This document shows positions 26,024-31,190 of a stretch of 64,000 nucleotides of DNA, piece by piece. The DNA is from Clostridia bacterium (GTDB taxonomy: Bacteria; Bacillota; Clostridia; Oscillospirales; Acutalibacteraceae): NCBI GenBank assembly GCA_017517135.1, contig JAFXAK010000031.1:84782-148781 (forward strand). The letters are read 5' to 3'. The position numbers were made by a program, and so were the translations under genes. Every line of letters starts with the position of its first letter. Positions within the stretch are counted from its first letter, which is position 1. The notes beneath the pieces were generated by a model. That model did not search any database. It was not told where the DNA came from and worked only from the letters and a program-made list of their open reading frames with translations.

Positions 26024-26080
26024 AAGGGGCTGTATCAAACATCAAAACAGATGTTATCGGTACAGCCCCTTGATATTTTA
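26024..26080. terminator. Bidirectional intrinsic terminator at left edge of AT-rich island
   Basis: The arms ggggctgta (26027-26035) and tacagcccc (26062-26070) are flanked by A-runs and T-runs. Confidence 0.6.
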
Positions 26081-26584
26081 TTGAGAATTTATGTCATCTT
26101 TTATTTTTTTATATTTCTCTATATTGATTTTTTCCTCTGCGAGCATTTTTTCTACCCATAATTGCAGAGTTTCGACGGTTATTGAAATTCGCTCCAATTC
26201 CTTTTGAATGAAAACAAAGTCCTTTATTTCGTCGTCGGAGATTTCTCCGTCTGCGGTGATTTCAATAAGTCTTTCCTGACTTTTCTTCATCGAATTAAGC
26301 GAGGACAGCATTTCAAGAACTATCTGAGCTAAGTCCTTTACCTTTATTTCGGGAACATATTTCTGACCTATCGGACATTCCTTTGAGCAATAGTGATTGC
26401 ACAGCATAGGCTCACCGTATATCTGAGAAAGAAGCATAACCTCTTCGGGCTGAATATCAAACTTTCCGTTCTCTATTCTTTCGAGCCTTTCACTCTGCAA
26501 GGGAAATTTAAGCTCATTTGCCTTATCGCAGACCTCGTCTCTTGTGAGAGAAAGCTTTTTTCTTATATCTTTGTATACGGACAT
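26078..26584 (-). CDS. XRE-family HTH protein with Cys-rich motif
   Basis: The HTH region is LSLTRDEVCDKANELKFPLQSERLERIENGK, followed by CNHYCSKECPIG. The start is the ATG at 26584 after AAAGGTGA. Confidence 0.7.
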   Translation of the reverse strand: MSVYKDIRKKLSLTRDEVCDKANELKFPLQSERLERIENGKFDIQPEEVMLLSQIYGEPMLCNHYCSKECPIGQKYVPEIKVKDLAQIVLEMLSSLNSMKKSQERLIEITADGEISDDEIKDFVFIQKELERISITVETLQLWVEKMLAEEKINIEKYKKIKDDINSQ

Positions 26585-26665
26585 TGTGTTCACCTTTTTA
26601 TTTCAAATATTTACTTAAGTTTAACACAGAATTTTATTTTTTACAATAATTATCAGATAATAAAT

Positions 26666-26702
26666 AAGCCCGGATTTACATACAGTAAATCCGAGGCTTT
26701 GT
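26666..26702 (-). terminator. Terminator after the three-gene module
   Basis: On the minus strand, AAGCCTCGGATTTAC-loop-GTAAATCCGGGCTT is followed by an A/T-rich tail. Confidence 0.45.
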
Positions 26703-26712
26703 TATATAAAAA

Positions 26713-27627
26713 TTAATCTACATATAATCTGTAGGCTAAATCAGAAACATCTGAAGAAAAAGGATATACCTTAAAATAATAATATCCGTTTTCTGTTATA
26801 CTTATTGTCCTTGTCTGCTCAAGCGTTGATGCAACTAAACTGCTAATCAAATCTCCTTGTGCATTATATATTCTAACATCATAATCATAATCTTCCGATG
26901 GTGACCTAAAATAAACATTAGTTGTTCCTGTAAGTCGTATTTTATAATAATCTATATCTGAAGAAGATGATATTGTACCATTAATCCATGTGTTTTGGAG
27001 TCTTGCTTCCGCAGTGGCCATTGTATTATTTGCACTTGGTGTTTCATTCCACCAAAAACATGAATGATCCGGCGCAATATGTCCATTTTTAAACGGTGCA
27101 ATAGCAAATGTGCTTTCTGAATAAACAGTATACTTATTTTCAATAATATAATGCCTTCCTTCCTGAGCACTGATTTTATACTTTGAACCGGCACTATTTT
27201 CTACATCTAATCCAAGAATAACACTATAGTATGTATTGGCTTCAATATCTTCCGGGGCATATGTCCCAACTGCAATATTAACTTCTCCAGGTCTATCAGC
27301 AAATGCTGTATCAAAATACGGATTCGGCAAATCAGTATGATATATTCTGTTGCTTGTCGCATATGCATTGTCATCATAGTCATAAAACAGTAGTTCCTGT
27401 TCATATGTATCTGTAGAACTATCAAATTCTGTAAGTCCAACAGAATTCCATTCTAAAAGCATACAACCACCTGTGCCATTAACTTCATCAAAATCTCCAA
27501 AACTACAAAAACCAAAATATGGCGAATATGTATTATATGAAGCTGCATTAGCAATAATCACACAAAAAAAACTCAAACAAAAACAGAAACAAAATATTAT
27601 TATTCTTTTTAAGTTATTTGTTTTCAT
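26713..27627 (-). CDS. Secreted protein with C-terminal pre-peptidase-C-terminal (PPC)-like beta domain, function unknown
   Basis: The ATG at 27627 follows AGAGGTGA. The signal peptide is ...CVIIANA|AS. The C-terminal region SSSDIDYYKIRLTGTTNVYFRSPSEDYDYDVRIYNAQGDLI resembles PPC/bacterial pre-peptidase domains. Confidence 0.6.
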   Translation of the reverse strand: MKTNNLKRIIIFCFCFCLSFFCVIIANAASYNTYSPYFGFCSFGDFDEVNGTGGCMLLEWNSVGLTEFDSSTDTYEQELLFYDYDDNAYATSNRIYHTDLPNPYFDTAFADRPGEVNIAVGTYAPEDIEANTYYSVILGLDVENSAGSKYKISAQEGRHYIIENKYTVYSESTFAIAPFKNGHIAPDHSCFWWNETPSANNTMATAEARLQNTWINGTISSSSDIDYYKIRLTGTTNVYFRSPSEDYDYDVRIYNAQGDLISSLVASTLEQTRTISITENGYYYFKVYPFSSDVSDLAYRLYVD

Positions 27628-29036: not shown

Positions 29037-30329
29037 TTATTGCGCTTTTGGAAAAACAATACTCGTTTCAAATATGTTGTTTACATTATCATAGTTCCAA
29101 TCATAAAATGCACCATACTTTTTTAGTGTTTTTTTTACAATATTTATTCCAACTCCATGCATATTTTTTTCTTTCTTAGATGAAATTAATTTATTATCAA
29201 TAAAAACAGGCGGATTATCGCAAAAGTTTCTTATAATAATACAATCAAAATTGCAATTTTTGGAGAAAATTAATAATTCAATCTGCTTATTACTTGATTC
29301 TTCCGAGGATTCAACAGCATTATCAAGCAAGTTATTCAATATTGTGGAAAGATCAATATCATACACATATTGCAAATTAGTCGAATTTATATCAAACTTA
29401 AAACATATTTGCTTTCTTTCACAAATAGCTGAATATTTACTGATAATGAGATTTAACATCCGATTACTGCTGATTTCTATATAAGCAATCTTTTCAACCT
29501 CTTTTATTATGTCATCAAGGTATTTGTGTATATCCTCAACACTTTCCATATAGCGAATTTGCAACAAATGGTTTTTAACATCATGAACAAAACACTTAAT
29601 ATCTTCTTGAGATTGTTCTATTGCTGCAAAATATTTCTCATCAATTTCTTGCTGAAAGCTTATTGTTTTTAACTCATAAAACTTCTTTTTTATACTTACT
29701 GTGCGTTCGTAAAAAATAAATATAATAAGGTTAGTAAATAATAATAAGATAAAAACTACAGAAATAAAAAGACTTAAAGATTCAGATATCTCTATTTTAC
29801 CTGAAATATAAAAAAATAAAAAGTTCATAATAACACTAATAATAATGAACAAAAACAATACCCAATAAAAATCATCTTTTTCTTCGGTTTGACTTTTCAA
29901 CATACTCTTTTTCTTTATAGCAAGTATAATGGAAGCATAAAACAATCTGGATAATATAATAACAAAAACATAAGCTGTGATATCCTTATCCGTTGCATCA
30001 TAATCGTTAAATATCAATGAACATAAATTCATAACTATTATTTCAGAAACAGATTTAATACTAACAAAAAGTGCTGTATGAAAAAGTGCTGATCTTAACT
30101 GAGTTTCAAAAACAACATAAAAAATTATATTATAAAAAATAAACATAAAAAAGAGATTAAATATTGTATTTCCGAACTCATATAAAACCAACAAACAAAA
30201 TAAAAGAATAGCTATTGAAAAAATTTTCTTTATTCTTTTTTTTGAAGAAAAAGATATACTTTCTGCATAAATATACAGCAAAACTGCTTCAAAAATATAC
30301 ACAGAAATATCTAAAAGCATCTTTATCAT
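29037..30329 (-). CDS. AgrC-like (HPK10) membrane sensor histidine kinase
   Basis: The N-terminal half has about 6-7 TM segments. The H-box is FVHDVKNHL, the N-box LLDNAVES and the G-box MHGVGINIV. The ATG at 30327-30329 lies 1 nt after the response-regulator stop. Confidence 0.85.
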   Translation of the reverse strand: MIKMLLDISVYIFEAVLLYIYAESISFSSKKRIKKIFSIAILLFCLLVLYEFGNTIFNLFFMFIFYNIIFYVVFETQLRSALFHTALFVSIKSVSEIIVMNLCSLIFNDYDATDKDITAYVFVIILSRLFYASIILAIKKKSMLKSQTEEKDDFYWVLFLFIIISVIMNFLFFYISGKIEISESLSLFISVVFILLLFTNLIIFIFYERTVSIKKKFYELKTISFQQEIDEKYFAAIEQSQEDIKCFVHDVKNHLLQIRYMESVEDIHKYLDDIIKEVEKIAYIEISSNRMLNLIISKYSAICERKQICFKFDINSTNLQYVYDIDLSTILNNLLDNAVESSEESSNKQIELLIFSKNCNFDCIIIRNFCDNPPVFIDNKLISSKKEKNMHGVGINIVKKTLKKYGAFYDWNYDNVNNIFETSIVFPKAQ

Positions 30330-30330
30330 A

Positions 30331-31035
30331 TCAGTTACCTTCCTTAATAAAAGCCAAAAAATGTCTTTTAAACTCAGCTTGTTTTCGGCTTGACACTTGA
30401 ATTTTAACATTAAATTGCTCAGTAGCTACTATTATTTCTTCACGACTAAAACTTTTTATAAAATTCATATTAACAATGTAACTGTTGTGCGGCACATAAA
30501 AATCAGAAAAATTCAATTTATCTTTTATTCTGCTAATACCTTCTTTAACAATATACATTTGTTTTTTTGTACAAACATTTGAAACACGCATTTTTGCTTC
30601 AACATAAACAATATCACTGATTTTTATTCTCACATACTTATTATCTTTCGTTACAAATGTTACTATCTTCGTATTTATTTCATCTAATGCCCTTTCTATC
30701 GCAGAAAAAACTTTTCGTGCTTCAATCGGTTTATACAGAAACCTGATAACATTCAAATCCATAGCATCATCAAGATATTCTATATAAGAAGTTATAATAA
30801 TTATAATACTGTCCTTTTTACCCCTTAATTCTTCTGCAATTTGTATTCCATTTAAATCACCTAACTCAATATCAAGAAAAACTATATCAAAATCCGTATT
30901 GCTATCAAGAAAATCTTTACCGGAGGCAAATTCACTAATTTCAACAGCTATTTTTCTCAGCAAAAAATATTCAACAATATAAGACTTTAAGGCATCTCTG
31001 CAAGAAGAATTATCATCACATATTGCAATTTTCAT
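30331..31035 (-). CDS. LytTR-family response regulator (AgrA/ComE-like)
   Basis: The receiver domain reads MKIAICDDN...FDIVFLDIEL. The LytTR domain follows (IVYVEAKMRVSNVCTKKQMYIVKEGISRIKDKL...FYVPHNSYIVNMNFI). Confidence 0.92.
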   Translation of the reverse strand: MKIAICDDNSSCRDALKSYIVEYFLLRKIAVEISEFASGKDFLDSNTDFDIVFLDIELGDLNGIQIAEELRGKKDSIIIIITSYIEYLDDAMDLNVIRFLYKPIEARKVFSAIERALDEINTKIVTFVTKDNKYVRIKISDIVYVEAKMRVSNVCTKKQMYIVKEGISRIKDKLNFSDFYVPHNSYIVNMNFIKSFSREEIIVATEQFNVKIQVSSRKQAEFKRHFLAFIKEGN

Positions 31036-31140
31036 TTCAGTATCTCCTGTTCTTTATATCTCAATACAAAATATATAGCAGAACACTTAATATTTCAATA
31101 TTTCAGAAAAAACATTTAATGTATTCACAGAAGATTTCAT

Positions 31141-31181
31141 ATATAAAAATCCATACCCTCTTATCAGGAGAGTATGGATTA
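31141..31181 (-). terminator. Intrinsic terminator after the oxidoreductase gene, at the right edge of the AT-rich island
   Basis: The arms aatccataccctc (31148-31160) and gagagtatggatt (31168-31180) carry one mismatch. A U-run follows on the minus strand. Confidence 0.6.
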
Positions 31182-31190
31182 ATACAAAAA

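Follow-up and report, generated by a model that had tools for sequence, protein, structure and literature searches.

Canonical agrBDCA loci, such as that of Staphylococcus, encode a polytopic histidine kinase (HK) with an HATPase_c_5 domain and a response regulator (RR) that joins a receiver to a LytTR DNA-binding domain, together with agrB and agrD. A pair of this general type also occurs apart from agrBD: in C. difficile, RgaS-RgaR consists of an orphan AgrC/VirS-like kinase and a VirR-like LytTR regulator, which directly activates few promoters, including those of hypothetical-protein operons, and does not sense AgrD1; G residues at -51 and -72 are critical in the RgaR boxes (PMC10602386). 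The subject of this report is a locus of six minus-strand genes within a 64,000-nt stretch of DNA from a Clostridia bacterium (Oscillospirales; Acutalibacteraceae), which corresponds to positions 84,782 to 148,781 of the forward strand of contig JAFXAK010000031.1 (assembly GCA_017517135.1) and is referred to as the window. The locus encodes a predicted Agr-type two-component system (TCS), three predicted extracytoplasmic proteins (P4, P3, and P2), and an XRE-type regulator; all six genes were located just as an earlier reading of the window from its letters alone, the original prediction, had described them, and their coordinates are given in Table 1.

On balance, we favor the reading that an Agr-type TCS has been split from agrBD and, in this lineage, directly controls the extracytoplasmic P4-P3-P2 operon. 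The regulatory half of the locus is of a known kind, and the undescribed part is the P3-P2 pair together with the N-terminal domain of P2; the original prediction of an undescribed system therefore stands for the pair and that domain and lapses for the TCS, and a new mechanism is not shown by the evidence. The locus provides another Agr-type pair detached from agrBD, in uncultured Oscillospiraceae-like Clostridia of the gut or rumen, with a candidate LytTR box that predicts the direct target. The rare P2 family and its dedicated partner gene form a testable two-gene extracellular unit. If this pair is a density-switched adhesin or toxin, it bears on substrate attachment or competition of fiber-degrading gut anaerobes; if it is not, the genes are a lineage-restricted hypothetical operon.

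The two-component system and its Agr-type relatives

Both domains of the RR match Pfam above cutoff (Response_reg, E 5.4e-14; LytTR, E 8.1e-15), and the HK matches HATPase_c_5 (GHKL; E 5.4e-18). Residues 1-205 of the HK contain seven hydrophobic segments, and the motif reading gives an H-box (FVHDVKNH) and an N-box (LLDNAVES). The HK start codon ATG lies 1 nt past the RR stop codon TGA, and no terminator hairpin is found 3' of the HK gene (z +0.8). The closest relatives of the RR and HK, with 56% and 48% identity, respectively, are encoded beside AgrB and an AgrD-like gene in the genome of a sister lineage (L011), an Oscillospiraceae metagenome-assembled genome, which is why the window pair is read as Agr-type. 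By domains and orthology, the RR and HK almost certainly constitute an AgrCA-type (HPK10/LytTR) TCS.

Searches of the 64-kb window by tblastn with the AgrB and AgrD-like sequences of the sister lineage gave no match (E <= 1e-2). The domains and this negative search bear out the claim that the pair is an AgrC/AgrA-type orphan within the window; its orphan state weighs less as a novelty, since it has a precedent among Clostridia in RgaS-RgaR (PMC10602386). Like RgaS-RgaR, the window pair is an Agr-type kinase and LytTR regulator encoded apart from agrBD, here on the scale of the 64-kb window; unlike RgaS-RgaR, whose genes are unlinked, the RR and HK genes are immediate neighbors. The products of the adjacent operon are unrelated to RgaR targets as far as tested, in that no C. 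difficile locus appeared in the P2 genome scan. Compared with canonical agrBDCA, the window TCS has the same domain architecture, but agrB and agrD are missing from the window, there is no autoregulatory LytTR box 5' of RR-HK, and the adjacent target is a structural operon rather than a regulator of the RNAIII type. The putative sigma-70-like promoter of the RR gene (Table 1) contains no LytTR box, and the repeat core TGCATTTRTGT described below is absent there.

No C39 peptidase or ABC-exporter domain was found by Pfam in the six island proteins, nor was there a match to an immunity family among them, so that these traits of class II bacteriocin loci were not seen in the six; no open reading frame (ORF) with a double-glycine leader was noticed in the ORF list, in which no dedicated search for one was made. 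Two short ORFs were considered as pheromone genes and set aside. A 17-aa ORF 3' of the upstream terminator is without a ribosome-binding site. The sole ORF of the gap between the HK gene and P4 encodes 40 aa (MSYFSAFMFWRLIFWRYDCYYKNKLPLIPHLTWTERNDIL; 28986..28864, minus strand); it begins with GTG, has a poorly spaced ribosome-binding site, overlaps the start of P4, and spans the promoter predicted for the operon, and is thus a weak candidate for an AgrD-like gene. The gap is identical in all strains.

The sister lineage (L011/L021) has a complete agr-type locus (L011, 16299-19542), comprising genes for AgrB, a 50-aa AgrD-like peptide, RR, HK, and a helix-turn-helix (HTH) protein. The same genome has a second LytTR RR gene, without a kinase, whose product shares 35% identity with the window RR; it immediately precedes the same P4-P3-P2 trio that follows the TCS in the window. 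In L011 the 3' end of the RR gene and ~165 nt of the downstream promoter region are duplicated (6510-6800 and 8420-8625); the first copy precedes genes for a secreted Zn-phospholipase-C-like protein of 338 aa and a polytopic membrane protein of 154 aa, and the second follows an internally deleted RR remnant and precedes the P4-P3-P2 module. The L011 assembly has a gap (a run of N) at 6646-6744. That different LytTR paralogues stand directly upstream of one operon in two lineages argues for real regulatory coupling with swapping of the regulator, confined to this clade.

Two features of the agr locus in L011 may be added. The kinase gene overlaps at its 3' end with the HTH gene. As the 50-aa AgrD-like peptide lacks cysteine (…TTSLFAYQPEVP…), the autoinducer may be a serine lactone or linear.

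A candidate LytTR-dependent promoter

The gap between the HK gene and P4 is 169 nt long and contains a pair of direct repeats 5' of a predicted promoter with an extended -10 element (Table 1). The two repeats agree at 13 of 15 positions at a spacing of 21, a match equaled in none of 2000 dinucleotide-preserving shuffles of the gap (0/2000); when spacings of 19-23 were allowed, an equally good repeat arose in 5 of 2000 shuffles. The 64-kb window has no further copy of the core TGCATTTRTGT. From the end of the proximal repeat to the -35 element TTGATT there are 8 nt, and the G of each repeat falls at about -54 and -75 relative to the start site predicted near 28917. Because 21-bp-spaced candidate repeats just 5' of a promoter have the layout of a LytTR box, the RR probably activates the three-gene operon directly through them. 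A LytTR-dependent promoter had been proposed at about 28900-28990 in the original prediction, and the shuffle-tested repeats together with the -35 and extended -10 elements give that proposal a defined site.

As at RgaR promoters, two direct repeats lie one 21-bp step apart at about -50 and -70; the sequence of the window repeat, TGCATTTRTGT, differs from the VirR and RgaR boxes. In L011/L021 a lone similar half-site (TTCTGCATTTGT) lies between agrBD and the RR gene; a second one is missing at the 21-bp distance.

P3 and P2 as a conserved pair

Loci with a P2-like gene were screened by hidden Markov models (HMMs) built in this analysis (n=26). A P3-like gene is directly upstream of the P2-like gene in 25 of the 26 loci, which represent ~13 lineages; the exception (L044) has a distant 224-aa P2 homologue that is without a PPC domain. 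Gut and rumen samples supplied the Oscillospiraceae and other clostridial hosts of the pair; the remaining hosts are an isolate-grade low-GC (guanine plus cytosine) genome and two genomes of the Candidate Phyla Radiation (CPR). The P3 and P2 genes often lie close together or overlap, the overlap being 14 nt in the window and 4 nt in L011. The ORF listed for P2 in the window begins three codons too early; an exact-match look-up found the protein only when translation was begun at the internal ATG. The strict synteny and the overlap make it very probable that P3 and P2 act together.

P4 is confined to the window lineage and the sister lineage. Because a LytTR regulator stands beside the pair in these two lineages only, the conserved functional unit is, as read from gene neighborhoods, P3-P2 and not the TCS plus three genes. 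Conserved co-occurrence of the RR-HK pair with the three genes, as the island had been conceived, did not hold up: it extends to one sister lineage only, and there the module adjoins a different, kinase-less RR paralogue. Small polytopic membrane proteins are encoded 3' of the P2-like gene in L019, L025, L026, and L047.

Several neighborhoods of the pair have features of their own. The CPR copies, together with a small polytopic membrane protein, are found in Candidatus Yonathbacteria and a Parcubacteria-group bacterium (L025, 2432-4583; L026, 300-2574; also L042 and L043), hosts far from the Clostridia that hold the rest of the family, which suggests inter-phylum transfer. In the isolate-grade low-GC genomes (L045/L046, 4387-8678) the pair is situated within a run of small unannotated genes for secreted proteins or lipoproteins, which includes a duplicated 100-105-aa gene and a faint DUF4367 match; a resolvase and an rve transposase are encoded nearby in L046. 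In L037 a LysR-like regulator is divergently encoded upstream of the P2 homologue.

P2, a secreted two-domain protein

Word-indexed homologue searches with P2, P3, and P4 returned only proteins of the same species and one relative of P2 with 60% identity (P0002), which belongs to the sister lineage L011/L021. An exhaustive HMMER search with a profile of P2 and this relative retrieved ~20 full-length homologues (~300 aa) and hundreds of proteins with similarity confined to the C-terminal domain; the full-length family amounts to ~20 clusters among 1.84 billion representatives.

The AlphaFold2 model of P2 built from a 17-sequence alignment has a pLDDT of 86 and a pTM of 0.80 (pLDDT 44 with a 2-sequence alignment). 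In it, a signal peptide precedes an all-beta N-domain (~residues 30-198), and the C-terminal part folds as a beta-sandwich. The ~105-residue C-domain superposes on the collagen-binding domains of the collagenases ColG and ColH with a Foldseek template modeling (TM) score of 0.78-0.82 and a root-mean-square deviation of about 2 Å. Searched against PDB sequences, the family profile matches ColG (5iku, E 6.1e-11) and ColH (3jqw, E 3.8e-09); PF04151 (PPC) is matched by 3 of 17 family members (best E 4.4e-7), and the window P2 alone falls below the Pfam threshold. By profile and modeled fold, the C-domain is assigned to the PPC/collagen-binding type. P2 resembles ColG/ColH (PDB 5iku, 1nqd, 3jqw) in this domain and differs from them in having neither collagenase catalytic nor PKD domains and in its N-domain, which is a new sequence family. 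The signal peptide and the PPC profile and fold matches agree with the earlier description of P2 as a secreted PPC-domain protein.

Neither Pfam nor NCBIfam nor the PDB gave a sequence match to the N-domain, whose profile found nothing in the PDB even at E 10. Outside the C-domain, the Foldseek matches of the whole model are generic beta-sandwiches, including carbohydrate-binding modules, phage tail and host-specificity proteins, and Cry/Vip domains. Five residues of the N-domain (E76, D106, E115, K151, and Q155) are invariant across homologues of 27-60% identity. Two ideas about this domain were rejected. A tandem PPC protein was not supported by hhalign, which shows no relation between the N-domain and the C-domain. 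A G1 glutamic peptidase would require the Gln and Glu in the reverse order to that of the candidate residues, and no such fold is among the top 50 Foldseek matches.

One P2 homologue, of 582 aa (L037, 2500-4248), carries FG-GAP/VCBS-like repeats after the PPC domain, recognized by eye from DxNGDG-type motifs; so read, they suggest modules for binding or adhesion. The next gene (4832-9079), cut off where the locus ends, encodes at least 1415 aa of a secreted protein.

P3 and P4

P3 and P4 are linked both by a family HMM and by BLAST, and on these grounds are regarded as paralogues, in accord with the original prediction. The 192-aa P4 orthologues of L011 and L021 score about 2.5e-62 and 5.9e-62 against the P3/P4 HMM, whose seeds included P4 and the L011 protein itself; P4 is 32% identical to the L011 192-aa protein, and BLAST of the 234-aa protein of L011 (L011_234) against P4 gives 2e-9. 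In both P3 and P4, ~4-5 residues precede a single hydrophobic segment. P3 has a possible cleavage site (VSA|RE) at 31/32, and a small-x-Ala motif ~30 residues into the protein is conserved in the family.

Four of nine P3/P4-family members match PF13791 (Sigma_reg_C) over most of the profile, with a best E of 5.6e-5, all below the curated cutoff. This family is named by Pfam for single-pass sigma-factor regulators of Firmicutes, and P3 and P4 share with them a single N-terminal membrane segment and an extracytoplasmic domain; they differ in that the match is below cutoff, no anti-sigma (Sigma_reg_N) domain is found in P3 or P4, and no sigma-factor gene is present in the block. With so few cytoplasmic residues, P3 and P4 cannot be anti-sigma factors of the usual kind. 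A search of the P3-family profile against PDB sequences returned noise from the coiled-coil region only, NCBIfam likewise gave noise, and a literature search on PF13791/Sigma_reg_C turned up nothing. The original prediction had been unable to place any of the three output proteins in a family; this no longer applies to the C-domain of P2, and P3 and P4 have their weak Sigma_reg_C match, whereas the N-domain of P2 is still without one.

Table 1. Features of the locus and its borders, in the order of transcription of the minus strand (coordinates are those of the window).
Feature	Coordinates	Strand	Description and basis
Intrinsic terminator of upstream GFO/IDH/MocA-family gene	31148..31180	-	Upstream border of low-GC block
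Sigma-70-like promoter 5' of RR gene	31070..31098	-	TTGAAA, 17 nt, TATATT; 10/12 consensus match, consensus match only
Response regulator (RR), 234 aa	30331..31035	-	Receiver and LytTR DNA-binding domain, AgrA/VirR type; Pfam
Histidine kinase (HK), 430 aa	29037..30329	-	AgrC type; Pfam, hydropathy, motifs
Direct repeat pair TTTATGCATTTGTGT / TTTCTGCATTTATGT	28962..28997	-	15 nt each, starts 21 bp apart; putative binding site of the RR LytTR domain
Predicted P4-P3-P2 operon promoter	28924..28953	-	-35 TTGATT, 18 nt, extended -10 TGcTATTAT; promoter scan and sequence reading, consensus match only
P4, 177 aa	28334..28867	-	GTG start; N-terminal anchor (hydrophobic residues 6-24) and extracytoplasmic domain; shorter P3 paralogue without helical insert
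P3, 235 aa	27614..28321	-	N-terminal anchor or long signal peptide; split alpha/beta domain with coiled-coil insert
P2, 304 aa	26713..27627	-	Sec signal peptide (ANA|A), ~170-aa all-beta N-domain, C-terminal PPC/collagen-binding-type beta-sandwich
Intrinsic terminator ending RR-HK-P4-P3-P2 unit	26666..26699	-	Fold -20.6 kcal/mol, z -7.2
XRE-type HTH regulator with Cys motif, 168 aa	26078..26584	-	Separate monocistronic unit
Hairpin terminator between convergent XRE gene and alpha-L-arabinofuranosidase gene	26026..26071	.	Fold -26.3 kcal/mol, z -7.2; downstream border

Proposed mechanism and alternative explanations

In the mechanism proposed here, the polytopic kinase would respond to a signal outside the cell and, as expected from its family, would phosphorylate the LytTR regulator. 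The likeliest signal is a peptide that other cells produce or that is encoded elsewhere in this genome. The regulator would then bind the 21-bp-spaced repeats (28997..28962) and switch on the weak promoter next to them, with its -35 and extended -10 elements. Because there is no terminator after the kinase gene, transcripts from the RR-HK promoter could also read through into P4-P3-P2 at a basal level. P2 would be held, matured, or displayed at the cell surface by P3, joined here by P4, and would act not as an enzyme but by binding a polymer or the surface of another cell. This last part, in which P3 and P4 hold or display P2 and P2 binds, is drawn from protein architecture and is offered as a tentative possibility.

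A number of observations weigh against the reading that the TCS controls a surface-retained P2. Near the pair, a homologue of the window RR or HK occurs only in the sister lineage and in none of ~12 other lineages; the other neighbors of the pair include an XRE-HTH membrane protein (L016), the LysR-like regulator of L037, ABC transporters (L022/L032), and housekeeping genes. The link to the TCS could therefore be recent or incidental. No pair of the repeat motif was found before the L011/L021 module, and no agrBD was found in the 64-kb window. As to the proteins, P3 may not stay anchored but be released by cleavage; its likeness to Sigma_reg_C is slight, with 15.3 bits for P3 itself against a cutoff of 25, all family matches being below the curated value; and the invariant acidic and polar residues of the P2 N-domain could mark a catalytic rather than a binding site.

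It is rather unlikely that P3-P2 is an undescribed two-protein extracellular system, composed of an anchored Sigma_reg_C-like partner and a secreted protein whose new beta-sandwich domain is an effector, with a mechanism of its own, for example a partner-assisted binary adhesin or toxin, which has spread horizontally and patchily from gut Clostridia to CPR and was captured by an Agr-type circuit with swapping of the LytTR regulator. A toxin or antagonism module, with P2 as an enterotoxin-like protein (N-terminal effector and, at the C terminus, a receptor-binding domain of collagen-binding type) and P3/P4 or the small membrane proteins in a protective or chaperone role, is improbable. LytTR quorum control is typical of toxins and bacteriocins, and full-length C. 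perfringens enterotoxin, which has the same size and two-domain layout, matches P2 in Foldseek with E 1.6e-7 and probability 1.0; yet the TM score to the full-length toxin (0.23-0.25) is no better than that to its C-domain alone (0.23-0.24), so the N-domain adds nothing to the superposition, and no amphipathic insertion hairpin was identified in P2. A weak Aegerolysin match in one P2-family member, the promoter segment of L011 that is shared with the secreted phospholipase-C-like protein and the 154-aa polytopic membrane protein, and the small polytopic membrane proteins encoded after the P2-like gene in four loci also speak for a toxin, while the lack of a C39 exporter or known immunity family in the six proteins, the lack of any double-glycine peptide noticed in the undirected reading of the ORFs, and the extracytoplasmic single-pass topology of P3/P4, which is unlike that of typical immunity proteins, speak against it. 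Equally improbable is a secreted enzyme, with a hydrolase or lyase of a new beta-sandwich type in the N-domain and with P3 as its membrane-bound foldase or inhibitor, comparable to lipase-specific foldases or separate propeptides. The five invariant N-domain residues, the strict adjacency and overlap of the P3 and P2 genes, surroundings rich in glycoside hydrolases, and the usual occurrence of PPC domains on secreted peptidases and hydrolases (Pfam PF04151 description) would suit an enzyme; the N-domain, however, matches no enzyme family in Pfam, NCBIfam, or the PDB, its Foldseek matches are of the generic binding type, and no catalytic motif was recognized.

Two further explanations concern the relation of the operon to the TCS. 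The order of the genes, RR-HK followed directly by two paralogous proteins with N-terminal anchors and ectodomains, recalls walRK-yycHI. P4 and P3 could accordingly modulate the HK by contacts between transmembrane segments, in the way that WalK is modulated by YycH and YycI, and P2 could be a co-sensor that captures the ligand, which would make the three genes inputs rather than outputs; the lack of a terminator between the HK gene and P4 would be in keeping with this. Such a role is very unlikely, since the P3-P2 pair is widespread, occurring in ~12 lineages without a nearby kinase, the L011 module adjoins an RR without a kinase, the gap has its own LytTR-box promoter, and P3 and P4 have no detected sequence similarity to YycH or YycI. 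There is scarcely more probability that the genes are incidental neighbors, the TCS having other targets, the three genes being expressed independently, and the repeats being a product of chance in AT-rich DNA. The restriction of the coupling to two sister lineages and the absence of the repeat motif from the promoter of the L011 module fit this explanation, but at spacing 21 the shuffles never matched the repeats (0/2000), the repeats stand at the correct distance from the -35 element and are unique in the 64 kb, and two LytTR RR paralogues lie directly upstream of the module in two lineages.

Composition and borders of the low-GC block

In 500-nt windows GC is 0.22-0.33 from ~26.5 to 31.2 kb and 0.40-0.47 in both flanks; the whole block has a GC of 0.292 and the remaining window 0.415. 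The upstream border is the terminator of the preceding GFO/IDH/MocA-family gene (31180..31148), a 13-bp stem followed by a T-run, which folds at -20.7 kcal/mol (z -5.9 relative to shuffled controls); the other two terminators (Table 1) likewise fold well beyond their shuffles. By terminator folding, the block contains two transcription units, RR-HK(-P4-P3-P2) and XRE on its own. A terminator-bounded block of low GC was thus confirmed, the computed profile being anything but flat.

Horizontal acquisition of the block is plausible on composition. The original prediction of an acquired island holds insofar as there is a compositional break at both borders. Other marks of an island were looked for and not found: the 64-kb window contains no tRNA gene, none of the six island proteins has a Pfam match to an integrase or a transposase, and there is no convincing att-type repeat. 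Copies of an imperfect 21-nt direct repeat (81%), GAGGCTTTGTTATATAAAAAT and GAAGATTTCATATATAAAAAT (26693-26713 and 31130-31150), flank both ends of the five-gene RR-HK-P4-P3-P2 unit; they could be a chance occurrence, since such repeats are common in AT-rich DNA, or the remnant of an insertion. No empty site was seen among the contexts listed (6, from 9 contigs) for an identical 419-aa flanking protein: the block is present in every informative one of these contexts, and the short contigs end just past the gene for that protein.

Low GC recurs with the P3-P2 pair elsewhere. Its GC is below that of the flanks in L011, L016, L022, L025, and L026, and not in L019 or L045, a pattern that would fit genes transferred horizontally more than once, or genes that are AT-biased by nature. 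The agr locus of L011 is likewise low in GC relative to its flanks.

The GC skew of the block shows a shift of its own, with values of -0.2 to -0.42 over 26000-31250 and a return to about zero at 31.2 kb. In neighboring genes of the minus strand the change is less sharp, and the shift fits either a block of separate compositional origin or a coding strand strongly biased toward purines.

The XRE gene and the downstream junction

The XRE protein matches phrog_6499 ("transcriptional regulator") over its full length with E 1.9e-34, and it has a weak Pfam HTH_3 match; its gene has an intermediate GC of 0.373. No XRE gene is found at the L011/L021 locus. The gene is accordingly classed, from its family and context, as an unrelated phage-type regulator outside the conserved module; listed as a separate regulator among the six genes in the original prediction, it is kept out of the unit on account of the phage-type family, the separate terminator, and the absence from the sister locus. 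A reading of the six island proteins as a defense system was also rejected, as PADLOC found no match for any of them.

The downstream junction of the block varies among strains of the same species. Between the XRE gene and the arabinofuranosidase gene, at a position equivalent to ~26000-26080 of the window, a gene for a 109-aa HTH protein and one for a 1020-aa LRR_5 protein have been gained (L002, 8071-11679; also L004, L005, L006, and L008).

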